From positions 2,494,672-2,550,912 of the forward strand of contig CP070768.1 in assembly GCA_020345745.1 (NCBI GenBank): 56,241 bases of DNA, read 5' to 3'. This DNA comes from Desulfobacterales bacterium (GTDB lineage: Bacteria > Desulfobacterota > Desulfobacteria > Desulfobacterales > UBA11574). Positions within the stretch are counted from its first letter, which is position 1. Every line of letters starts with the position of its first letter. Shown one piece after another: positions 1 to 51,730 of the stretch. The translations under genes and the position numbers were made by a program. Below the pieces are notes generated by a model. The model made no database searches and had not been told where the DNA came from. It saw nothing but the letters and a program-made list of their open reading frames with translations.

Positions 1-3000
1 ACATGGTATCCAAAGAGGCTGTTGACTTCACGGGTTAATGCCAAGCTGGCCCTTAATTTCAATGAGTCAGACAGTGAGATAACCGTTTCTGTTTTATCAG
101 TGTTCAATAAATGAACATATGCTGGGCAGGAACCCGGATGCCCTTTCAAGATGTCATTTAATCTTATCAGCAATGTTTTGTCCGTCCGGGTAGCATCTAA
201 ATTGAAATGGATGCTTGCCGTCCAGAACTCATCCGCTTTATCTATGGATATGATTTTATCCGCCAACATTTTTATTGAATTTTCATCCTTTTGGAGCTGC
301 CCCTGAACGAGAATCGGAACATCTTCTGCTAACAGATGGTACACCTTTGCGTAAAGTGAAGAAAAAACAGTGATTTCAACCGATCCATGGAGGTCTTCTA
401 GGGTAACAAAGGCCATTAAATCGCCCTTTTTGGTTTTGATAATCTTGGTATGCCTGACCATCCCACCCATTCTGACAGCTTCGCCATCCTTTTTCCCCTT
501 CAGTATATGGCTGTCCACGTTGGCGAACTTTTCCAGCACAGCTTCATACCGATTGAGCGGGTGTCCGGTGATATAAAAACCAAGGGATTCCTTTTCAAAG
601 GTTAAGCGTTGCTTTTCACTCCATTCATCGATGTCGGGCATGGGGGGCAGATTGATCTCCTGTTGACCTTTCTCCAATTTAAACAACCCGATCTGGGGAT
701 CCAATTTTTCTTTTTGCACCCTTTGACCGTAATCGATGCAGTCCTCTAAAACTGCCATCATTTGCGAACGATAGTTCCCGGTAGAATCAAACGCGCCGCA
801 TTTAATGAGACTTTCAATCACCCGCTTGTTCACTTTTCTAAGATCAACACGTTCGCAGAACTCAAACAAAGAAGAGAATTTTTTCTCATTTCTGACCTCG
901 ATGATAGCATCAATGGCACCTTCCCCAACATTTTTGACAGCCACTAGTCCAAACCTTATCTTTGAACCGGTCGCGGTAAAGGCTTTGCCGCTGTCGTTGA
1001 TGTCAGGTGGCAGAACTTCTATGTTGGCACTTCGGCATTCTGCCATATACTTGACAACACCATCTGTGGATTGCATTTCACTCGTCAGCAACGAAGCCAT
1101 AAATTCCACGGGATAGTGAGCTTTTAAATAAGCCGTCTGATATGCAATAAGCGCATAAGCCGCGCTGTGGGATTTATTAAATCCATACCCACCGAATTTT
1201 TCCATAAGATAAAAAATCTTTCCGGCTTTATCAGTGAGAATGCCATTCTCCTGGGCACCCTGCATAAAATGCTCCCGGTGCTTGGCCATAATGGACGGAA
1301 TTTTTTTGCCCATCGCTTTTCTAAGATCATCAGCGTCAGACATTGAAAAATTCGCCAGCTCACTGGCGATTTTCATGACTTGCTCCTGATAAACGATGAC
1401 GCCGTATGTTTCTTGCAAAATTGATTCCAGCTCGGGGACAATGAATTCAACTTTTTTTCTGCCGTGTTTCCGGTCCACAAAATCATCAACCATCCCACTG
1501 TCAAGAGGCCCTGGTCGATAGAGAGCAACCAGTGCGATGACTTCGTCAAAGCGCTCCGGCCGAAGCCTCATCAGCAGGTCTTTCATGCCGGAACTTTCCA
1601 GCTGAAACACGCCTGTGGTCTCTCCGGACGAAAGCAGGCGATAGGTTTTGGAATCGTTTAAATCGAGGTTGGTATGATCCGGAGGATTGCCACCTTGTTT
1701 GGCAATCAGGTCCAATGTGTTGGCGATAACCGTCAGGTTACGAAGACCTAAAAAATCGAACTTGACAAGCCCGATCTTTTCAACACATTGCATGTCGAAT
1801 TGGGTGACCACCTCACCTTTTTTGCCTTTATATAGCGGTAGATATTCTACCAAAGGCTTGTCGGCAATGACAACACCGGCCGCATGCGTTGACGCGTGTC
1901 TTGGAAGCCCTTCCAGTACTCGGCAGATATTGATTAAATCAGCAACTTCGGGTTTTTTTTCCGCCAAATCCCTGAGTCTCGGCTCCTGCTTTAACGCCTC
2001 GTCGAGGGTGATGTTCAAAACATCAGGTATCATTTTGGCGATGGCGTCGACTTCATAAAGCGGTATGTCCAAAGCCCTTCCTACATCACGAATGACCGCT
2101 CTGGTTTTCAATTTTCCGAAAGTGATAATTTGGGCCACAAAATCACCACCACCGTATTTCTCCGCAACATACTTAAAGACCTCTTCTCTCCCGTTGATAC
2201 AAAAATCAACATCGATATCCGGCATGCTTTTTCGGGCCGGATTAAGAAACCGCTCAAAAATGAGGCCGTGCTCGATAGGGTCCAGATCGGTAATTCCAAG
2301 GGAATATGCGACTAGACTTCCTGCTGCAGACCCCCTGCCTGGGCCGACCGGAATTTGGTTATCTTTTGCGTAACGGATAAAATCGGCAACAATTAAAAAA
2401 TAACCGGAAAAGCCCATTGAGCTGATCAGTGAAATTTCATTTTCAACACGATCAATATATACCTGTTGGTCAAGGTCAGGATGCTTTGCGGTTACCCGCT
2501 GCAATATTTTTTCGAATCCGTCCCTAACCTTTTGTTCAAACAGTTCATCCACCGTCTGCCCAGACGCTGTTTCAAAATGGGGAAAGTGGTATGAGTCGAA
2601 ATCGAAGGTTAGGTTGCAGCGCCGGGCAATATCTACCGAGTTTTCAAGGGCACCGGGATAATCCTTAAACGTCGCAACCATTTCATCTTTTGATTTTAAA
2701 TACAACTGATCGGTACGAAATTTCAGTCTTTGTGTGTTCTGAACAACCTTGCCGGTTTGGACACACAAAAGTACGTCATGGGCGCGGGCATCTTCTTTGT
2801 TAAGATAATGGCAATCGTTCGTAGCAACTAGAGGAATGGAAAGCCTTTGGCTTATATCCAAAAGCATTTGGTTAACGTTCTCTTGCTCCTCAATGCCGTT
2901 GTTTTGGACCTCCAGAAAAAAACTGCCTTCACCGAATACGTCCTGGTAAAAGCGTGCGGCGTCTTCAGCTTGATCGATCCGTCCGGCTTGAATCAGTCCG

Positions 3001-3431
3001 GGGATTTCACCATGGAGGCAGCTTGACAGGCCAATGAGCCCTTCACTCAGGTTTCTCAAAACGTCTTTGTCGATTCGCGGCTTATAATAAAATCCCTCCA
3101 GTTGGGCAATGGAAGCCAGTTTGCATAGATTACGATAGCCGGTTTGATTTTCAGCCAGAAGGATCAAATGTGACAGCCCACCTTTATCCAGCGGCGTTTT
3201 TTCTGTAAGTCGCCGAGGGGCCAAATAACATTCGCAACCAATAATTGGTTTGATTCCCGCTTTGTTTGCTTTTTCATAAAATTCCAACGCACCGAACATG
3301 GTGCCATGATCGGTAATAGCTACAGCATCCATACCAAAATCGGCCACGCGTTTTAATAACGGTTCGATCCGAATGGCACCGTCCAAAAGGCTGTATTGGG
3401 TGTGGACATGAAGATGAACAAAATCGGACAT
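1..3431 (-). CDS. dnaE: DNA polymerase III alpha subunit; its 3-prime end runs off the window
   Basis: The minus-strand frame is open from the ATG at 3429-3431 to position 1. It is absent from the ORF track because no stop lies inside the window. My translation starts MSDFVHLHVHTQYSLLDGA (PHP domain) and contains GPGRGSAAGSLVAY, FDFLGLRNLT, YRPGP and FNKSHSAAYA. Confidence 0.93.
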   Translation of the reverse strand, partial: MSDFVHLHVHTQYSLLDGAIRIEPLLKRVADFGMDAVAITDHGTMFGALEFYEKANKAGIKPIIGCECYLAPRRLTEKTPLDKGGLSHLILLAENQTGYRNLCKLASIAQLEGFYYKPRIDKDVLRNLSEGLIGLSSCLHGEIPGLIQAGRIDQAEDAARFYQDVFGEGSFFLEVQNNGIEEQENVNQMLLDISQRLSIPLVATNDCHYLNKEDARAHDVLLCVQTGKVVQNTQRLKFRTDQLYLKSKDEMVATFKDYPGALENSVDIARRCNLTFDFDSYHFPHFETASGQTVDELFEQKVRDGFEKILQRVTAKHPDLDQQVYIDRVENEISLISSMGFSGYFLIVADFIRYAKDNQIPVGPGRGSAAGSLVAYSLGITDLDPIEHGLIFERFLNPARKSMPDIDVDFCINGREEVFKYVAEKYGGGDFVAQIITFGKLKTRAVIRDVGRALDIPLYEVDAIAKMIPDVLNITLDEALKQEPRLRDLAEKKPEVADLINICRVLEGLPRHASTHAAGVVIADKPLVEYLPLYKGKKGEVVTQFDMQCVEKIGLVKFDFLGLRNLTVIANTLDLIAKQGGNPPDHTNLDLNDSKTYRLLSSGETTGVFQLESSGMKDLLMRLRPERFDEVIALVALYRPGPLDSGMVDDFVDRKHGRKKVEFIVPELESILQETYGVIVYQEQVMKIASELANFSMSDADDLRKAMGKKIPSIMAKHREHFMQGAQENGILTDKAGKIFYLMEKFGGYGFNKSHSAAYALIAYQTAYLKAHYPVEFMASLLTSEMQSTDGVVKYMAECRSANIEVLPPDINDSGKAFTATGSKIRFGLVAVKNVGEGAIDAIIEVRNEKKFSSLFEFCERVDLRKVNKRVIESLIKCGAFDSTGNYRSQMMAVLEDCIDYGQRVQKEKLDPQIGLFKLEKGQQEINLPPMPDIDEWSEKQRLTFEKESLGFYITGHPLNRYEAVLEKFANVDSHILKGKKDGEAVRMGGMVRHTKIIKTKKGDLMAFVTLEDLHGSVEITVFSSLYAKVYHLLAEDVPILVQGQLQKDENSIKMLADKIISIDKADEFWTASIHFNLDATRTDKTLLIRLNDILKGHPGSCPAYVHLLNTDKTETVISLSDSLKLRASLALTREVNSLFGYH

Positions 3432-40833: not shown

Positions 40834-42711
40834 TTAATAACTGCCCAGTATTTTCAGATAGTCGGTTTTCTCGTCAAGCAAATCGAGCACGGGCTTAAAC
40901 GCGTCTGATTCTGCATCTGCTTCAACGTCGACATAAAACATATACTCCCAGGGCTTTCCGTGGATGGGTCGGGATTCTAGCTTTACTAAATTAATATGGT
41001 TGTCAGCATATATTTTCAAAACTTCATAAAGAGCGCCGGGTTGGTTGCCGGTGGAAAAGATGAGAGACGATTTTCTTCGGGGTCTTTTTTCAAGCTGTTC
41101 TTTGCCGATAACCACAAAGCGAGTATAGTTTCTGGGATTGGTTTCGATCCCTTCTTCAATAACCGCCATCGAGTGAATTTCAGCTGCCTCTTTGCTGGAA
41201 ATGGCAGCGTCAGTCACGTTTCTCCTGTCGCTTATTTCTTTAGCAGCAGCTGAAGTGTCATTAACCGGAACCAGCTTCCAATCTGAATGACGCTCCAAAA
41301 ATTGACGGCATTGCTGAAAAATAAGCGGCGGTGATAAAACCCGTTTGATCGTATCGATCCGTGCATCCGGGTGACCGATAAGGTAATGCATGACACGAAT
41401 AGTGATCTCGCCGATGATTCTTAGATCATATTCGAGAAGAAAGTCATAGTTTTCATGGATACTTCCGGTAAGGGAATTTTCCAACGGCACAACACCGAAA
41501 TCGACCTCACCCCGCTTTACGGCTTCGAAGATCGCTCTAAACGAAGGTGCCGGGATGGCTTCTACTTGTGCGCCAAAATATTGTAAGCAGGCTTTATGGC
41601 TGAACGTACCCATTTCACCCAAGAATGCAGCTCTTTGTAATCCGGTTCCGTTAACTTTTGCCAAATAATCGACAGCGGAAGCTTTGTCCAGATAATCAAA
41701 ATCGAGCTGTTTACCGATCACCGGTGCGATGACATAAATATCTCGCATGAGTTGTCCGAACTGTTTTGGATAAAGGCTCTGGGGACCATCAGACAGGGCA
41801 TGATCCGGATCGTGATGTACTTCAATCATCAATCCGTCTGCTCCGGCAGCAATGGCAGCCCGGGCCATGGGACTCACCTTTTCACGGATTCCGGTGGCAT
41901 GGCTGGGATCGATAATTACCGGCAAGTGCGTCAAAGTCTTGAGAACGGGAATTGCAGACAGATCAAGTGTGTTTCGTGTGTAGGGTTCGAAAGTTCGAAT
42001 CCCTCGTTCACACAATATAACGTTGTCATTGCCCTCTGAAAGAATATACTCGGCTGACATCAGCCACTCTTCTATAGTGGATGAAAGCCCTCTTTTTAAA
42101 ATAACCGGTTTGCCAATGCGACCGACACATTTCAAAAGTTCAAAATTTTGCATGTTGCGGGCGCCCACCTGCACAACATCCACATATTTCATCATCATAT
42201 CGGCTTGCGCCGGGGATGTGATCTCGGTCACAACACCCATCCCGGTGACCTCTCCGACTTCGGATAGAATCTTAAGCCCTTCCTCTTGCATGCCCTGAAA
42301 AGAATAAGGGGACGTTCTCGGCTTGAATGCTCCCCCTCGAAACAGTATGGCGCCGTATTTTCTGACTTCATTGGCAATCGTCAATGCCTGTTCCCTGCTC
42401 TCAACAGCACAGGGACCCGCGACAACCGTAATGCGTTCGCCACCTACAACAGCATCCCGAACCTGAACGCGCGTGTCCTCCGGACTCAATTGTCGACTCA
42501 CAAGCTTAAAAGATGTGGAAATGGGAATCACCTTGGAGACACCGGCAAGCTGTTCAAAAAAATCGACAGCCAGACTCCCCTTGCCCACAGCGCCAATAAT
42601 GTGTTGACCCGCCTCGGACATCTCACGAACAATATATCCCTCTTTAAAGAGTATGCTCCGTATATTGCTCTTCTGATCCGGAGTGATTCCTTTTTCCAAC
42701 ACGAGAATCAT
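40834..42711 (-). CDS. Fusion protein: type I-beta DAH7P synthase with an N-terminal ferredoxin-like domain, plus prephenate dehydratase with an ACT domain
   Basis: 625 aa with an AAGGAGG SD. N-terminus [13 protein letters not shown]...[13 protein letters not shown] (Thermotoga-type regulatory domain). DAH7PS motifs [27 protein letters not shown] and IIDPSHA. Prephenate dehydratase motifs [11 protein letters not shown] and [11 protein letters not shown] domain [10 protein letters not shown]...NLVKLESRP. Confidence 0.88.
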
Positions 42712-44318: not shown

Positions 44319-44618
44319 ATGCCAATGCAATTGACAATAAAAGTGATTGAAATCAAGGGGAAATGCCCGGTCTATGACATCGGCAACAAAATCGTTCTAA
44401 AACAGGGATATATTTTGGACACGAAAGAGACAGACGTGGTCTGCATGCACTCCATTTCGTCGATTATGCCCTTTTATGTCGCTTTGTCAAAAGGGGTTAA
44501 GGCCAAAGAGATCGGTCTTGCCAAAGGGGATTCCAACGAAGCATACGTTCAATGTGCGGACCCCTGTGATCTAACCAACGGCGGAACGGTAAGATTTGAG
44601 ATTTGTCGTGTGGACTGA
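44319..44618 (+). CDS. Small Cys-containing protein, TIGR04076-like (from memory of the family pattern)
   Basis: 99 aa with KGKCPVYDIG...VCMHSISSIMPF...VQCADPCD...GTVRFEI. Confidence 0.5.
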   Translation: MPMQLTIKVIEIKGKCPVYDIGNKIVLKQGYILDTKETDVVCMHSISSIMPFYVALSKGVKAKEIGLAKGDSNEAYVQCADPCDLTNGGTVRFEICRVD

Positions 44619-44628
44619 AATATTCGCG

Positions 44629-47600
44629 TTAAGGCTTGCGATCCATGTCTTGTCTTAACTTTTTGATTCGCTCCACGGCAAATTCATATTCAATCCTTTC
44701 ATCCATATACGATCCCAGGGCTTCCTTATAATGTCTGGTGGCCTTCTGTTTATCACCGGAACCTTCAGCCCAAAATCCTAAAGCAGCATGTGCGGTAATA
44801 ATATATTCGGGACTTTCACCTGCCTTTTTTAGCAAGGACGCTTCTGTTCGTTCAGCCAAGAGAACTTCGCTGATCATCCGGTACCAAGAATCTTTCGTCC
44901 CTTGTTTGTACCTCTTGAGAATGGTCTTTGCTTGCTCTTTTTGTCCCATTCTGTAAAGGATCTCTGGTTCTAAAATCCCAACAGTTAAACGACCTGCGTT
45001 TTCTCGACCCTCTATCTCGAGATAGTTCTTGGCATATTCAAGCGCCCGGTGCCAAGATTCTGCTATGGCACTATAATATATCAGTCGGATAAGGACTTCC
45101 CCGTTGGTTTTGTCGTGATCATATATTTTTTTCAAAACAGACTGTTTGTCATGGATACTCAAGGTGTCTTGTTTGAGCTTTGCCATGATCGTCTCAAGCT
45201 CAATCCGACGGTCTGCCTTGGCCAAAAGACCGTTTTGTAAAGCGACTGCAAAGCCCTCTGTCTCAGCCTGATATTTGGTCTTCGCAACGTCATCTAGCAA
45301 GGATGATATTTTTTGCTGCTGCACCTGGCCCAGTTTCGCAAGGGCCATGAAAAATACCCAGTCATTGCTGTCAACACTCTGAACGGCTTTTTTCAGTAAA
45401 TTTTCTGCATGTTCCAGATCTCCTTGTTTTGTCAGGACCAGCCCGGCAATATAATAAAGCCAACCCTTTTCAGAATTAGAATAGCCGCCCTTGACAGCCG
45501 TTTTCATGTCGACAAGTCCTTCCAAAATCCTTACCAGATAACCGAAAAACTCGGAAGGAGATCGCCAATCCAAGGCCAATAATTGCCGGCCATGGGAACT
45601 TTCGGTCGAGCTGCCTGCCTGCCAGTCGATCACATAAAGCATGAGCCTGGCAAGGTCATTCTCCGAATCCATCGATAACGCATTAACAAACAGGGCTCTA
45701 GCTCCGGAGTAGTCCTTGGCACAGAAGTGCATCATCCCCGCCGCGATGACCAATGTCGGATCAAAGCTCAATTTCAATTCTTTATCGGCCAATGATTGGG
45801 CATCAACCCATCGCTGGCGGCTGGCTATCTCCGCGATCTGTTTCAGCTTGGTTGCAATCGATAAATCAAGGAATCCGTTCCATTTGACTTGTCCGGCTTT
45901 CAAATCATGCAAGAAACCAGCTGCCTGGGAAATGGGTAGTACCATACCTAAATCAGAGAGGAGCGTGGCTACCGGTATGGGTGCGGTCGCCCAGTCCACT
46001 GCCACGCTAGAGGCGATACCGATGACGTTGCCGTGAATATCGATGATCGGCCCGCCACTGTTACCCTTGTAGATAGAGGTATCGACTTGGATCATATTTT
46101 TAAACGTGCGACGAACGTGCCCCCTCGTCACGCTGACGTTCACCGTAGCTGCCTGGGTTTGCCTGCCAAGCGGAAACCCCAGAGCAATCACCGGAGAAAG
46201 TCGAGGAATTTCCATTGTTGTCAAGTTAATGGCTAAAGGAAGAGGTTTGAGTTCAATCGGAACTTGATCGATTTTAAGGACCGCAAAGTCATCTTTCAGC
46301 GGTGATTTAACCCGTTGCCAAGTCTTTATAGGTGGTCTGGCTACACCGGCGATGGTCAAGCGAGGCATGCCGTCGGTCCTAAAGGCGGCATTAATGTAAT
46401 AGATGTCGTCCAAATCTGTACTACCTGATAACCCTGGTAAGCGTTTGAAGGCTTTTTCACCATCAAACCATAAAAACGCCCGATAGCCCAAGCGAGGTGA
46501 CCGCTGCAACATCTTGAGTCTTCCGATGAGCGCATACAGCTTGGTATCTTCCAACCAGGGACAGGCGACATGGCGGTTGGTTAACAGGTAGCCCTCTGCA
46601 TCCACAAGAAACGCCGTTCCTTCGGTCCTATTGCGGTAAACCATGGTTTCACCATCATTTAGCCAATAGTCAACCAGGACAAATGCCACGGCTCCGGCAT
46701 ATTGATTGGCGTATTCGCCGAGAACGGTTTCACTGTCCCTTTTACTATAAGCGTAATAGATCCATGCCAGGCCTCCAAGAAGAATCAGAACAGCCAAAAT
46801 GACCACCAAAAAGCGCAAGCTTTTCTTGATCCCTCTGATTTCCTGTACCGGCGTCGAAACGGCATCCAGGTGGTCCAGCCTGTCCGGCTCAAACGCTTCG
46901 ATGTCGATCCCGGCCAGCGTTTTGGCAACGTTGGCCATGGTCCGAGGTCGTAGATCCGGATCTTCAGCCAGCATGATTTTAAGCAAAATTTCCATTTCCG
47001 AAGGAAGGCTTAACTGACCTATTTTGTCTTGAAAGTCTCTCACTTCGTGATCGGCGGTGAGCAGTTCCACGAAAATTTTCCCTAACGACCAGATATCGCT
47101 TCTAATATCCAGCGGCCTGTTGTTGACAATATCGGGGTGACAGGAAAGGAGTTTTTTCAACATGGGCCCGGGTTGGTCCATTTTCGGGTCGAGGAAGCGA
47201 GACAGCTTGTAATCAATTTTAACATCCAGTTCACCATCTTCTCTTTTGAAAATAATAACATCATCTAAAATGAGATGCGGGATAAAATGCCCGATTTGAT
47301 GGAGACCTTCAAGAATTGAGGCGATCCTGGAAAAAAGGTTGAAGGCGGCACGATAGTCTTGGAAAATGCCGGAAGCCAACAAGGCTCCCCAGCTCTCAGC
47401 ATCAATCCATTCGCTTACCCGATACCATAACCCGTCCTGGGATCTCCTGATCTCAAGATGCCTGACGAAGTAATCCTCGGGAAGCTGCTTGAGTTGTTCC
47501 AGTTCCTGTTTGAGGCGATCGGCTATGCTGTTGTCCACTCCGGACCGGGGAGTGAATATGCGAATCATAACCGACCCCTCCATATCATTTTTGACCGCGC

Positions 47601-47751
47601 GGCATAGGATGCTGGAGTATCCTTCGTGGATGATTTCAACGATTTGATAGTCGTCGATGAATTTCCTTCCTTCACCAATTTCGCTACCGCATGAGGGACA
47701 GGCTATAATCTCTTCCGCCACCAACTGTCCACATGTTTGGCACAACTTCAT
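44629..47751 (-). CDS. Membrane protein: zinc ribbon, degenerate Ser/Thr-kinase-like domain, TM helix, trypsin-like serine protease, TPR-like repeats
   Basis: 1040 aa. Zinc ribbon CQTCG..CPSCG at aa 4-21. Kinase subdomains DIWSLGKIFVELLT and DPDLRPR are present, but the HRD, VAIK and DFG equivalents read IPH, MIR and DYK. TM helix at aa 312-335. Protease triad motifs LLTNRHVA, DDFAVLKI and GNSGGPIID. The helical repeat tail runs from about aa 640 to 1040. Confidence 0.8.
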   Translation of the reverse strand: MKLCQTCGQLVAEEIIACPSCGSEIGEGRKFIDDYQIVEIIHEGYSSILCRAVKNDMEGSVMIRIFTPRSGVDNSIADRLKQELEQLKQLPEDYFVRHLEIRRSQDGLWYRVSEWIDAESWGALLASGIFQDYRAAFNLFSRIASILEGLHQIGHFIPHLILDDVIIFKREDGELDVKIDYKLSRFLDPKMDQPGPMLKKLLSCHPDIVNNRPLDIRSDIWSLGKIFVELLTADHEVRDFQDKIGQLSLPSEMEILLKIMLAEDPDLRPRTMANVAKTLAGIDIEAFEPDRLDHLDAVSTPVQEIRGIKKSLRFLVVILAVLILLGGLAWIYYAYSKRDSETVLGEYANQYAGAVAFVLVDYWLNDGETMVYRNRTEGTAFLVDAEGYLLTNRHVACPWLEDTKLYALIGRLKMLQRSPRLGYRAFLWFDGEKAFKRLPGLSGSTDLDDIYYINAAFRTDGMPRLTIAGVARPPIKTWQRVKSPLKDDFAVLKIDQVPIELKPLPLAINLTTMEIPRLSPVIALGFPLGRQTQAATVNVSVTRGHVRRTFKNMIQVDTSIYKGNSGGPIIDIHGNVIGIASSVAVDWATAPIPVATLLSDLGMVLPISQAAGFLHDLKAGQVKWNGFLDLSIATKLKQIAEIASRQRWVDAQSLADKELKLSFDPTLVIAAGMMHFCAKDYSGARALFVNALSMDSENDLARLMLYVIDWQAGSSTESSHGRQLLALDWRSPSEFFGYLVRILEGLVDMKTAVKGGYSNSEKGWLYYIAGLVLTKQGDLEHAENLLKKAVQSVDSNDWVFFMALAKLGQVQQQKISSLLDDVAKTKYQAETEGFAVALQNGLLAKADRRIELETIMAKLKQDTLSIHDKQSVLKKIYDHDKTNGEVLIRLIYYSAIAESWHRALEYAKNYLEIEGRENAGRLTVGILEPEILYRMGQKEQAKTILKRYKQGTKDSWYRMISEVLLAERTEASLLKKAGESPEYIITAHAALGFWAEGSGDKQKATRHYKEALGSYMDERIEYEFAVERIKKLRQDMDRKP

Positions 47752-47793: not shown

Positions 47794-47822
47794 AATATAG
47801 AGGTTCGTGTAAATGGTGTCAA
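47794..47822 (-). promoter_or_regulatory. Near-consensus sigma70 promoter for the 1040-aa gene
   Basis: On the minus strand: TTGACA (47822-47817), a 17-nt spacer, then TATATT (47799-47794). Confidence 0.55.
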
Positions 47823-48237: not shown

Positions 48238-49275
48238 ATGGAAGCACTCAAATGCAGATTAAAAGAACAAGGATTTTCTGCTGGGAGCTGCCTGGTTGAA
48301 GTAGATGGAAAGCGGGTGCTTGCTTGTCAGGCCACATTAAAATTTGAGAACAATCAAATCTATCGACGCATTACTTCCATTCATCTTTCCCGTCCTGAAA
48401 ATTACCTTTCCATTTATCAATCAGGATGTAACTTTTCCTGTAAAAAATGCCATTCCTGGTATTTTAGCAAGAAAAAAGACGGTACCTGGTACACACCGGA
48501 GGCGCTTCTTAAACAGGCCATTTCTTACGAGAAATCAGTCAACCTGATAGAACCCAAAGCCAGAGCAACGTCATTTCATGCTCACGATACCTGCCGTTGC
48601 TGCGGGAGTTGCGTGCTTTACGGAAAGCGACCAAGCGCGTGCCCCGGGATCATGCAGCCTGAATCGATTGTTATGAGCCCTCAGGGATTCGGTCCGGTCC
48701 GAAATATCGTCGCATTTACCGGTGGTGACCTGACCTGTTGTCCCGAATTTTACGGTGAGTTTGCATCGCTTGTTCATACCCATACCCAGCTATGGGTAAT
48801 GATTGAAACCAATGGTTTAGGTTTAACCAATCAAAATCTTGATTATTTTCAATATTCAGGCGTAGACGCCTTTTGGCTCGACATCAAGGCTTATGATGTC
48901 AACAAACACAAATGGCTAACCGGATGTTCCAACCAACACATATTGAAACTGCCTGAAGAAATCCTCAAACGGGAGTTTACGTTGGAAGTTCTATCACTCT
49001 ATATTCCGGGACTGGTTGAATCCGACGAACTTGAAAGTATCGCTTTTACTCTAAAAAAAGTCGATGCCTCAATCCCCTTTACCATTCTTGCCTTCTTCCC
49101 CGAATATCGCATGAAGGATGTTAGCCCTCCCACGGTTCAGCAAATCGTAGAAGCCTATGAACGGGTCAAGAATGTGGGGCTAAAGAATATCCGCCTTGGG
49201 AATATAGGTGTCTTTGTACGAACTGAAGAAGACCAGGAATATTTTCTGTCTCACGTTGACCCGGGTGCATATTGA
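48238..49275 (+). CDS. Radical SAM protein, PflA-activase-like (COG1180/COG2108-like)
   Basis: 345 aa with CNFSCKKC (CX3CX2C), an extra Cys-rich insert DTCRCCGSCV, and a C-terminal IPFTILAFFPEYRM...VGLKNIRLGN shared with the gene at 50624. Confidence 0.8.
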   Translation: MEALKCRLKEQGFSAGSCLVEVDGKRVLACQATLKFENNQIYRRITSIHLSRPENYLSIYQSGCNFSCKKCHSWYFSKKKDGTWYTPEALLKQAISYEKSVNLIEPKARATSFHAHDTCRCCGSCVLYGKRPSACPGIMQPESIVMSPQGFGPVRNIVAFTGGDLTCCPEFYGEFASLVHTHTQLWVMIETNGLGLTNQNLDYFQYSGVDAFWLDIKAYDVNKHKWLTGCSNQHILKLPEEILKREFTLEVLSLYIPGLVESDELESIAFTLKKVDASIPFTILAFFPEYRMKDVSPPTVQQIVEAYERVKNVGLKNIRLGNIGVFVRTEEDQEYFLSHVDPGAY

Positions 49276-49284
49276 CCGGACCAG

Positions 49285-49367
49285 CATTTCGGATCCCGCC
49301 CAAGCGGGATGAGCCTAACGTCCCGCCTTTGGCGGGAGACAAAAAGGAACGTTTTTCAAAGGTTTCC
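49285..49367. repeat. Rep-A-related mosaic end with two GC-rich stem-loops
   Basis: TCCCGCC-caa-GCGGGA (49294-49309) and TCCCGCC-ttt-GGCGGGA (49321-49337), then gtttttcaaaggtttcc (49351-49367). Near-duplicate of 30157-30228. Overlaps the last codons of the M28 peptidase gene. Confidence 0.75.
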
Positions 49368-50366
49368 GTGATGAGAAGTGAAAAAGATCACCAGACTTTC
49401 AACCAGCCGGGCCATGAACCCAAAATCTAATTTGTCCATGGTATCTGACGACATGTGATAATGAGGGTTGCGAAAAAAAGCTGTGTCCGTAATCATGACC
49501 GCCTTGTACCCCTTATCCCAGAAAGAGGCATGGTCGCTGAGCCTCACGGCAGGAAGCAGCCAGCCGCCCAACGGAACGGTAAGTTTGATAACCGGAAGTT
49601 CGGGATTCTTTCGGAAACTTTGAAATAATGCCTGAGTAAGGCTTCTGGAGCTCAAATTACCGACAATGCCGATATAGTCCCCTAGCTTCGGATAGCCGAA
49701 AAACATCAAGGGAAACGGATAATTCTGGCACCCCGGTTGACGGCAAGTATAACCGACCATCTCCAAACAAATCATCCCATCGATTGGTTCCTTCTCCTTC
49801 CAGGCCTTTAGCGCATAAACCCGGCTCCCCATGTGTCGCGTGGCGTACGCCGGGGGCTCCTCCAGAGCAAATGAGACAAATTTAACAGCCAGATCCAGTG
49901 TGCGCCCGTCGTTCATTGCATGTAATTGCCTGGCGGTTTCAAGCTGTACCGCTATGGCGCTCGCATTATCATCCGCACCGACCGTGCCGGCCACAGAGTC
50001 ATAATGCGCTCCCAAAATAAAACGATTTGACGGATGATCAACAAAAGAAATTTCCGACACGATGTTCGCAACCGTATAATCTCTGTATTGATAAGGTTCT
50101 TTGTGGACCGGTGCGCCAATATCCTGATAGAATGCTTCGATGTATTCAGCGGTTTTTTTAAGGTTCTGTGGTGTCAAGACGCTCCTTTCACCTATGGTCA
50201 CTGTCAGTGCCTCCAGGTGATCATGCAACCGTTCCGTCGTCTTTTTGATGTCAATCATAGATCTCCTTTCAGCACCTGTGCGCATGGGACGAATCAGAAA
50301 AACTACAAAAAATAACCCTGTTAAAAGAATAGACCATTTCATAATTGAAAACCTTTGAAATATCAA
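49356..50366 (-). CDS. M28-family metallopeptidase with an N-terminal signal/TM segment
   Basis: GAHYDSV, GADDNASAIAV and FVSFALEEPP. The track start is a TTG at 50366; the alternative ATG is at 50342 (MKWSILLTGLFFVVF). Confidence 0.75.
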   Translation of the reverse strand: MIFQRFSIMKWSILLTGLFFVVFLIRPMRTGAERRSMIDIKKTTERLHDHLEALTVTIGERSVLTPQNLKKTAEYIEAFYQDIGAPVHKEPYQYRDYTVANIVSEISFVDHPSNRFILGAHYDSVAGTVGADDNASAIAVQLETARQLHAMNDGRTLDLAVKFVSFALEEPPAYATRHMGSRVYALKAWKEKEPIDGMICLEMVGYTCRQPGCQNYPFPLMFFGYPKLGDYIGIVGNLSSRSLTQALFQSFRKNPELPVIKLTVPLGGWLLPAVRLSDHASFWDKGYKAVMITDTAFFRNPHYHMSSDTMDKLDFGFMARLVESLVIFFTSHHGNL

Positions 50367-50623: not shown

Positions 50624-51730
50624 ATGGGTACGTGTAAATACTGCCAGAGTCAAGCCGAGACCATCTCAAACACCATCGGCTATTGTGGTGACTGTATCCT
50701 GGACCACTTCGAAACCATATGGCCAGAAATAAAACAGGTTCATGACCACAGCCGTGCGGCCTTTGGTCTTCCTAAGGATCCCCCTCGGGCAAAAAATGGT
50801 ATATCTTGCGGCCTGTGCATCCACAGATGCCGAATTCCCGATCACGGAACGGGTTTCTGTGGTCTCCGATACGTACAAAACGGAAAGATCCGTGGGGGTA
50901 GGCCTCACGAAGGAAATCTGTATTACTACCACGACCCCTTACCGACAAACTGTGTCGGCGATTTTGTCTGCCCTGGCGGAACCGGCTGCGGCTATCCTGA
51001 ATACGCCGTTGCAAAAGGACCGGAATATGGACACAACAATCTAGCCGTATTCTATCATGCGTGCGCATTTAATTGCCTTTATTGTCAAAACTATCATTTT
51101 AAAACAAAAACATTTTCTGCCAAAACGACGCCGGCAAAAGCACTGGCCGAGGCCGTGAATAAACAGACAACGTGTATCTGCTATTTCGGAGGAGATCCAA
51201 CACCTCAGATACTTCATGCAATAAAGGCTGCAAAAATAGCTGTTAACAACGCCAGAGACCGAATACTAAGAATATGCTGGGAAACAAATGGTGCTGTTCA
51301 GGAGCCTTATCTGTCCATGATGGCGGATGTGGCTCTAACGTCGGGTGGGTGCATCAAATTCGATCTAAAGGCTTGGAACGATAGCATTCATCATGCCCTT
51401 TGCGGTGTGTCCAACGCCAAAACTCTGGAGAATTTCAGAACGTTATCAAAGCTGGCAGGACAACGGTCGAATCCTCCGTTGCTGATTGCAAGCACACTGC
51501 TCGTACCCGGATACGTTGATGAATCCGAAGTCTCTTCCATCGCCAAATTCATTTCCGATCTTAATCCGCATATTCCTTACAGTCTGTTGGCTTTTTATCC
51601 TCAATTTTATCTCCACGATCTTCCTACAACCGCACGATCCCATGCACTTCGCTGTCGCTCGATTGCCGAGAAAGCCGGCCTGAAAAACGTCCATGTGGGG
51701 AATGTGCACCTACTAGCTGAAGATTACTAA
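50624..51730 (+). CDS. Radical SAM protein, PflA-activase-like with an N-terminal Cys-rich extension
   Basis: 368 aa with CKYC...CGDC and CGLCIHRCRIPDHGTGFCGLR at the N-terminus, CAFNCLYC (CX3CX2C), and IPYSLLAFYPQFYL...AGLKNVHVGN. Confidence 0.8.
   Translation: MGTCKYCQSQAETISNTIGYCGDCILDHFETIWPEIKQVHDHSRAAFGLPKDPPRAKNGISCGLCIHRCRIPDHGTGFCGLRYVQNGKIRGGRPHEGNLYYYHDPLPTNCVGDFVCPGGTGCGYPEYAVAKGPEYGHNNLAVFYHACAFNCLYCQNYHFKTKTFSAKTTPAKALAEAVNKQTTCICYFGGDPTPQILHAIKAAKIAVNNARDRILRICWETNGAVQEPYLSMMADVALTSGGCIKFDLKAWNDSIHHALCGVSNAKTLENFRTLSKLAGQRSNPPLLIASTLLVPGYVDESEVSSIAKFISDLNPHIPYSLLAFYPQFYLHDLPTTARSHALRCRSIAEKAGLKNVHVGNVHLLAEDY

Follow-up and report, generated by a model that had tools for sequence, protein, structure and literature searches.

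A 1040-residue protein of a Desulfobacterales bacterium combines, in a single chain, a putative four-Cys zinc ribbon, a kinase-like domain devoid of catalytic residues, one transmembrane helix, an HtrA-like serine protease with an intact catalytic triad and a long tetratricopeptide-repeat (TPR) solenoid. The gene resides in a 56,241-nucleotide stretch of DNA (the window; GenBank assembly GCA_020345745.1, contig CP070768.1, positions 2,494,672 to 2,550,912), on the minus strand, and reads from an ATG start to a TAA stop codon at 44629-44631. All the parts that the initial annotation had assigned to this one protein were recovered by domain searches and structure modelling, and the codon positions of key residues were checked against the DNA. 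The parts are familiar, as found in DegS-type proteases, bitopic pseudokinases and TPR-assisted proteases; no published description of their combination was found in the literature searched. The protein is tentatively regarded as a membrane-anchored periplasmic protease, the activity or position of which may be set by a non-catalytic pseudokinase in the cytoplasm; the family probably serves to translate a cue in the cytoplasm into proteolysis in the envelope. The components of the protein are:

44629..47751, minus strand: whole open reading frame, 1040 residues, with at least 918 homologues of similar length
47668..47751, minus strand: residues 1-28, putative four-Cys zinc ribbon (C4, C7, C18, C21), presumably cytoplasmic; Cys residues invariant in 43 sequences, 70% identity
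46897..47667, minus strand: residues 29-285, Hanks-type kinase fold without catalytic residues (pseudokinase), from Pfam, hhalign, Foldseek and conserved motifs; 65% identity
46819..46896, minus strand: residues 286-311, poorly conserved linker, presumably cytoplasmic; predicted local distance difference test score (pLDDT) below 50 over residues 288-317, 22% identity
46744..46818, minus strand: residues 312-336, single transmembrane helix, N-terminus predicted inside, from hydropathy and an AlphaFold2 helix at 315-336
45934..46743, minus strand: residues 337-606, juxtamembrane helix (340-354) and HtrA-like S1 protease, from Trypsin_2, PDB and Foldseek matches; no PDZ domain
44632..45933, minus strand: residues 607-1040, all-helical TPR-like solenoid of about 22 helices, including a long helix at 821-859, presumably periplasmic, from Pfam TPR matches and AlphaFold2

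The kinase-like domain has the bilobal fold of kinases and a profile score above the family cut-off, and fails at the catalytic residues. Residues 35-266 match Pfam Pkinase (PF00069) with 33.4 bits, barely over the cut-off of 31.7 bits. The best PDB sequence matches for residues 28-264 are ULK3, Nek2 and PDK1 (phmmer), and the N-terminal part resembles PknB, PknI and Nek7 in Foldseek (target-normalised TM-score of about 0.7). The genome to which the window belongs encodes four canonical Hanks kinases, to which the domain aligns in profile-profile comparison (hhalign) with a probability of 99.2% and an E-value of 1e-18. Kinase motifs were read from three alignments (phmmer to PDB kinases, MAFFT with the four Hanks kinases of the genome, and hhalign), as follows:

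GxGxxG: reads HEGYSS, the Gly-rich loop being lost; Glu43 in this loop is conserved
VAIK: reads VMIR; the beta3 Lys is Arg64
alphaC Glu: Glu83, kept
HRDxKxxN: reads I157-P158-H159-L-I161-L-D-D164; HRD is Ile157-Pro158-His159
Catalytic-loop positions: His159 for the catalytic Asp, Ile161 for Lys, Asp164 for Asn
DFG: Asp180-Tyr-Lys; the DFG Asp is kept
APE: His-Pro206-Asp207
Subdomain IX Asp and subdomain XI Arg: Asp219 and Arg268, both kept

The two last residues are the markers by which a kinase fold had been recognized in the initial annotation, and the substitutions listed there (IPHLILDD in the catalytic loop, MIR for the VAIK Lys, DYK for DFG, a degenerate Gly-rich loop) are seen in all three alignments. 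Neither MAFFT nor hhalign placed a canonical Lys, Asp or Asn that could make the protein an ordinary kinase. The catalytic loop aligns gap-free in hhalign, with His159 at the catalytic Asp, whereas in the phmmer alignment to ULK3 the register is displaced by two positions, so that Ile161 falls there. The domain has no catalytic base, since neither register puts an acidic residue at this position.

The pseudokinase substitutions are invariant, or nearly so, in 43 relatives at most 80% identical to each other. In relatives at 30-35% identity both Arg64 and the loss of HRD hold, Asp164 persists, Asp180 is found in most, and the position of His159 is occupied by Q, F, D or Y depending on the clade. 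Compared with the window protein, mean identity amounts to 70% in the zinc ribbon, 65% in the pseudokinase, 62% in the protease, 47-49% in the TPR region and 22-29% in linker and transmembrane helix. Being conserved at least as much as the protease, and more than the TPR region, the pseudokinase is judged to be functional and not decaying; on the same comparisons, its substitutions are fixed and under strong purifying selection. The 120 best matches of the pseudokinase region all carry the protease (120/120).

The putative zinc ribbon, noticed initially as a CxxC...CxxC pattern ahead of the pseudokinase, has four invariant Cys residues; the Zn_ribbon_3 match of Pfam at residues 3-24 (16.9 bits) is below the 27-bit cut-off, and the AlphaFold2 confidence over the region is 61-69. 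A single transmembrane helix had been proposed at residues 312-335, and this is indeed the sole strongly hydrophobic segment of the protein: the Kyte-Doolittle plot (19-residue window) peaks at 2.75 at residue 314, all other segments scoring 1.6 or less. Charges flanking the helix (+3 N-terminally, -1 C-terminally) favour an N-terminus inside. The AlphaFold2 model, built on 43 family members, has a pLDDT of 83.4 and includes a kinase fold in the N-terminal part. Residues 288-317 are disordered in the model, and the membrane helix runs on, by way of helix 340-354, directly into the first strand of the protease. A flexible linker, only 22% conserved, favours tethering or oligomerisation over rigid allostery.

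The protease matches Pfam Trypsin_2 at residues 378-579 with 64.6 bits, and folds in the model as a beta-barrel spanning residues 355-606. The best PDB sequence matches for residues 479-585 are HtrA, AlgW, DegS and DegP, and Foldseek matches of the middle part include HtrA1 and DegQ (target-normalised TM-score 0.74-0.76). The S1 triad suspected from TNRHVA, DDFAVLKI and GNSGGP is intact: H394, D488 and S565 align with the catalytic His, Asp and Ser of HtrA and AlgW, and are invariant in 43 sequences. On the minus strand, the triad codons are:

46570-46572: H394
46288-46290: D488
46057-46059: S565

About 400 residues of TPR-like helical repeats had been noted after the protease, and a solenoid of about 430 residues was found. 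TPR_2 (33.1 bits, cut-off 27), TPR_19 (32.9 bits) and TPR_14 (29.6 bits) all match above their cut-offs at residues 678-806 or so, and the full AlphaFold2 model is all-helical from 607 to 1037. The C-terminal 441 residues modelled alone gave a pLDDT of 92.1 and a predicted TM-score (pTM) of 0.89. Only generic TPR proteins were retrieved with this model by Foldseek (E about 1e-5, TM-score 0.2-0.3), in line with helix-turn-helix repeats forming a solenoid. A profile search of PDB sequences retrieved only designed TPR proteins and MamA, with weak E-values, and there is a weak match to NlpI at residues 938-1037.

The closest known relatives of the periplasmic half, both in sequence and in fold, are DegS and other membrane-anchored HtrA proteases (MEROPS S1C), which share an N-terminal anchor, a periplasmic chymotrypsin fold, the His-Asp-Ser triad and the GNSGGP motif. 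The window protein differs from them in having a 430-residue TPR solenoid in place of a C-terminal PDZ domain, none of which was found by the Pfam scan of the 1040 residues, a spacing of about 94 residues from the catalytic His to the Asp, and a 310-residue, presumably cytoplasmic zinc-ribbon-pseudokinase where DegS has a short tail. Family-level scores are also far from those of true members (NCBIfam degP_htrA_DO 57.8 bits vs. a 416-bit cut-off, DegS 37.9 vs. 408 bits). The union of a periplasmic protease with a TPR module recalls BepA and NlpI-Prc of E. coli. BepA consists of an M48 protease and TPR, and in both systems the TPR module selects substrates or partners for the periplasmic protease. 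The analogy is functional only, as the proteases belong to different clans and a cytoplasmic module is found in the window protein only.

On the cytoplasmic side, the arrangement of a pseudokinase, one transmembrane segment and an extracytoplasmic domain is shared with EssB/YukC of type VIIb secretion, with TraF and with the MviN/MurJ pseudokinase domain of Mycobacterium tuberculosis, in all of which the kinase fold plays a non-catalytic scaffold role (PMC12599244, PMC9600267). Unlike in EssB/YukC, the outer domain is apparently an active enzyme, and the lineage is diderm. No YukC-type Pfam match was detected at E-values up to 1, no secretion-system genes lie nearby, and the protein is not a member of the EssB/YukC family. 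Compared by published descriptions, its motif set fits none of seven pseudokinase families (ActPs1-3, GLW, CP1, DYD and DLHK). The change of the beta3 Lys to Arg is shared with the DYD and ActPs2 families. DYD proteins keep HRD, lack the alphaC Glu and read D-Y-D (PMC12599244), while the window protein lost HRD, has Glu83 and reads D-Y-K. In the GLW family GLW stands for HRD, the beta3 residue is Leu or Trp, and the DFG Asp is missing in 100% of the members (bacterial Ser/Thr kinase atlas); the corresponding residues are here IPH, Arg and a conserved D180, and the invariant DGLWY motif of the window family, which had prompted the comparison with GLW, lies in beta4-beta5, not at the HRD position. 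CP1 and DLHK proteins have no transmembrane segment, unlike the window protein.

The word trypsin is absent from both the pseudokinase review (PMC12599244) and the bacterial Ser/Thr kinase atlas. A pseudokinase is combined with a chymotrypsin-like serine protease in SltB of Aspergillus nidulans, where function depends on both domains and a modulating effect of the pseudokinase on the protease has been proposed (PMC4985261). SltB is fungal, and is described with neither a transmembrane segment between the domains nor TPR (PMC4985261), both of which the window protein has; the combination probably arose independently in the two cases, and common ancestry is not claimed. Bacterial pseudokinases are almost unstudied experimentally, and the function of most families is unknown (PMC12599244). 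The family described here is of interest because a protease covalently linked across the membrane gives a strongly conserved bacterial pseudokinase an assayable read-out. It would also add a new form of control of envelope proteolysis, with TPR replacing PDZ and a cytoplasmic module as input, occurs in abundant sediment sulfate-reducer lineages, and may, via a sister clade described below, connect conflict systems with membrane-spanning proteolysis.

Clusters (at 90% identity) that share length and architecture with the window protein number at least 918, and go under no database names other than trypsin-like peptidase domain-containing protein or S1-C subfamily serine protease. Among 1.84 billion representatives searched, 142 clusters had an E-value below 1e-30, and 216 stretches of the species-genome collection encode a relative. 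Nearly all the labels among 80 listed stretches are Desulfobacterota or delta proteobacterium; two are cultured strains, and cultured carriers of the gene include Desulfosarcina alkanivorans PL12 and Desulforhopalus singaporensis DSM 12130. The gene was found in 9 of 401 genomes sampled across the phylum, in 36 of 201 genomes and 21 of 126 genera of the order to which the window belongs, and in none of four other genomes of its family. The window's genome, a single 3.42-Mb contig found in sediment metagenomes, has one copy. Two full-length paralogues, about 52-60% identical to the window protein, were seen in CP070746.1 (L035, L070), JASFEQ01 (L023, L065) and DAOVBC01 (L013, L049). Some genomes of the order carry broken copies, with a split or frameshift that leaves two or three pieces, or no more than fragments (G587:C4:328720-331906, G523:C65:13012-16275, G476:C1), which suggests that the gene is dispensable.

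Variants of the architecture were also found. Relatives P0181, P0194 and P0169 consist of a short tail, the transmembrane helix, the protease and the TPR region only. Since such proteins exist, the periplasmic protease-TPR unit appears to be autonomous, and the pseudokinase an added regulatory part. A distant member of the family has a fused C-terminal M48 peptidase domain, a BepA-like make-up which points to periplasmic protein processing. P0226, a relative of 595 residues (JGI 3300042731, gene 1346-3133), has no TPR part, and is followed 76 nucleotides downstream, on the same strand, by a gene for an extracytoplasmic function (ECF) sigma factor, a single case observed on a 4.4-kb contig.

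A sister clade at 30-35% identity (P0159, P0162, P0170, P0176 and P0177) shares the architecture of the window protein, with an additional coiled-coil segment inserted behind the transmembrane helix. Its genes were located as follows:

L090/L091: 6001-9162
L095: 7001-11896
L093: 6001-9237
L094: 6001-9207
L092: 4949-8056

Co-directional neighbours of these genes are of the kind known from conflict systems, and encode TIR_2-Ank, TIR_2-FGE-sulfatase, RelA_SpoT(-RyR), NUDIX and PEGA-FGE-sulfatase proteins; STAND NTPases (AAA_16/nSTAND1 with WD40), an M48 peptidase and transposases were also found. In one locus the NUDIX gene lies directly upstream of the sister-clade gene, in a second a single gene separates the two; the NUDIX proteins of these loci are 57% identical. 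P0170 and P0177, two sister-clade paralogues, are encoded on the same contig of GCA_030814695.1 with about 2 kb between them. Sister-clade genes are repeatedly accompanied by genes for two exported proteins with signal peptides, first a helical protein of about 256-283 residues and then a VWA protein of about 211-220 residues:

L090:4512-5985: exported helical and VWA pair
L095:12040-13523: exported helical and VWA pair
L093:2463-3976: exported helical and VWA pair

The VWA proteins are 30-38% identical across the three loci, and the helical proteins of L090 and L095 are 35% identical. Both may be periplasmic partners or substrates.

The reading preferred, on balance and at somewhat less than even probability, is that of a membrane-anchored periplasmic protease with activity or position set by a non-catalytic pseudokinase in the cytoplasm. 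The protein would be a bitopic inner-membrane protein, and its output a periplasmic serine protease of the HtrA type, the activity of which is predicted. The TPR solenoid could bind substrates or partners, replacing the PDZ domains of DegS and DegP. The zinc-ribbon-pseudokinase would act without phosphorylation as a binding or oligomerisation module; a flexible linker, some 25 residues long, joins it to the membrane helix, and through this tether it would most likely control clustering, oligomeric state or location of the protease. Control might come from a bound ligand or from the docking of a conserved partner in the cytoplasm, for which the four canonical Hanks kinases are candidates; envelope proteolysis would be controlled from inside to outside. 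The reading is the most economical because it takes in an enzyme outside, a conserved non-enzyme inside, a flexible and variable tether and an autonomous periplasmic unit. The initial annotation had suggested a transmembrane pseudokinase-protease device working in either direction; the layout is borne out by the domains and the single membrane helix.

Some observations weigh against an anchored protease controlled from the cytoplasm. The results would fit either direction of signalling, and the retained R64, E83, D164 and D180 leave room for nucleotide or metal binding, or even for atypical activity. Neither neighbour, partner nor substrate genes are conserved across 76 related loci, and the only sequencing runs found to contain the sequence are from sediment DNA metagenomes, with no RNA run among them. 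The spread is patchy (36/201 genomes in the order, 0/4 in the family) and some copies are split; taken together with the conflict islands of the sister clade, this makes a defence role fit as well as envelope maintenance.

A role as conflict or defence effector, in which the pseudokinase pocket senses a nucleotide-derived signal in the cytoplasm and switches on the periplasmic protease, is unlikely, though it holds a real share of the probability. The protease would either damage the envelope of its own cell, leading to abortive infection, or process a periplasmic partner, and the window gene would be a stand-alone version of the system. The association of the same architecture, in the sister clade, with co-directional TIR_2, RelA_SpoT, NUDIX, STAND and transposase genes and with the exported VWA and helical (about 260 residues) proteins speaks for this role, as do the patchy spread with broken copies and the pattern of pocket residues, R64 being present in every clade and D164 and D180 in most, with variation at the position of the catalytic base. 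Linkage to conflict or defence genes is, however, a trait of the sister clade only, and was found neither for the window clade nor for the window's genome. A phmmer search of all the open reading frames flanking 76 window-clade genes for NUDIX, FGE-sulfatase, TIR, VWA, RelA, M48, STAND and Ank proteins returned only generic ABC ATPase matches, so that none of the partner families of the sister clade is found there, and the VWA protein and its 283-residue partner are absent from the genome of the window. The neighbours of the window gene are genes for aromatic amino-acid biosynthesis, radical SAM enzymes and peptidases, no compositional anomaly is seen, and conservation is uniform, not diversifying. 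Membership of a defence system was also checked with PADLOC, which gave only generic, domain-level matches to trypsin and kinase. On a further reading, also unlikely, the degenerate pocket (Arg64, Glu83, Asp164 and Asp180, with no catalytic base) would be a receptor for a nucleotide or second messenger, gating an executioner or processing protease across the inner membrane; if true, a single protein would signal from inside to outside, and the sister clade would use this device in TIR/NUDIX/RelA-SpoT/STAND conflict islands.

Signals might also travel from outside to inside by regulated proteolysis, the TPR-protease sensing a periplasmic cue and either cutting itself or being cut near the membrane, and a site-2 protease then freeing the zinc-ribbon-pseudokinase to bind or release a regulator in the cytoplasm, for instance an ECF sigma factor. 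The precedent is DegS-RseA-RseP, an established case of site-1 followed by site-2 cleavage. Self-cleavage between pseudokinase and protease is also known for the fungal SltB (PMC4985261), and the gene of the TPR-less relative P0226 precedes an ECF sigma factor gene. This last link is the single case on a 4.4-kb contig mentioned above, while in 76 loci no sigma or anti-sigma factor gene is a conserved neighbour; moreover, segment 340-354, a conserved helix, packs into the protease in the model instead of forming a loop exposed to cleavage, and the protease-TPR unit also occurs without any cytoplasmic domain. Such a mechanism is very unlikely. Hardly any weight is given to the view that the kinase-like domain is still enzymatic, an atypical kinase or nucleotide transferase working through Arg64, Asp164 and Asp180 in what would be an ordinary receptor kinase with an unusual sensor. 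Glu83, Asp180 and an acidic residue at the Asn position (D164) are retained, with Arg at the beta3 position, and ATP binding without the beta3 Lys is found in WNK and KSR1 and, by modelling, in the DYD family (PMC12599244). Against this stand the lack of an acidic catalytic base in either register (His159, Ile161), the variation of His159 among clades, the loss of the Gly-rich loop, with a conserved Glu43 in it, and a Pfam score barely above threshold.

The gene looks monocistronic, as it is convergent with the downstream open reading frame and divergent from the upstream radical-SAM gene. The downstream frame (99 residues, 44319-44618, plus strand) ends 10 nucleotides from the stop codon of the gene, has no Pfam match and is not kept beside relatives of the 1040-residue gene. 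The GC content of the gene does not stand out from that of its neighbours. The near-consensus promoter placed at 47822-47794 by the initial annotation is present:

47794..47822, minus strand: sigma-70-like promoter match, TTGACA-17-TATATT, 11/12 matches, 43 nucleotides upstream of the ATG, a consensus match only

It is only suggestive, because 8 such sites were found in the region and 5.8 are expected. No obvious operon partner had been noticed initially, and none emerged from comparison of loci: clustering of neighbours in 80 related loci (all-against-all blastp) gave no family-wide partner, only local synteny within sub-clades. A Pfam scan of 130 immediate neighbours yielded 142 families, the commonest in 7 of the 130; the 25 commonest families, those listed, are all metabolic or housekeeping. 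In the window, the gene is surrounded by:

40834-42711, minus strand: DAHP synthase, prephenate dehydratase and ACT domain in one open reading frame of 625 residues
43232-44260, plus strand: 3-dehydroquinate synthase gene, adjoining the DAHP synthase fusion
48238-49275 and 50624-51730, plus strand: Cys-rich radical-SAM proteins, flanking the M28 peptidase
49356-50366, minus strand: M28 peptidase with an N-terminal hydrophobic segment
51782-52696, minus strand: M55 D-aminopeptidase gene

DAHP synthase catalyses the first step of the shikimate pathway, and prephenate dehydratase a late step in phenylalanine synthesis.

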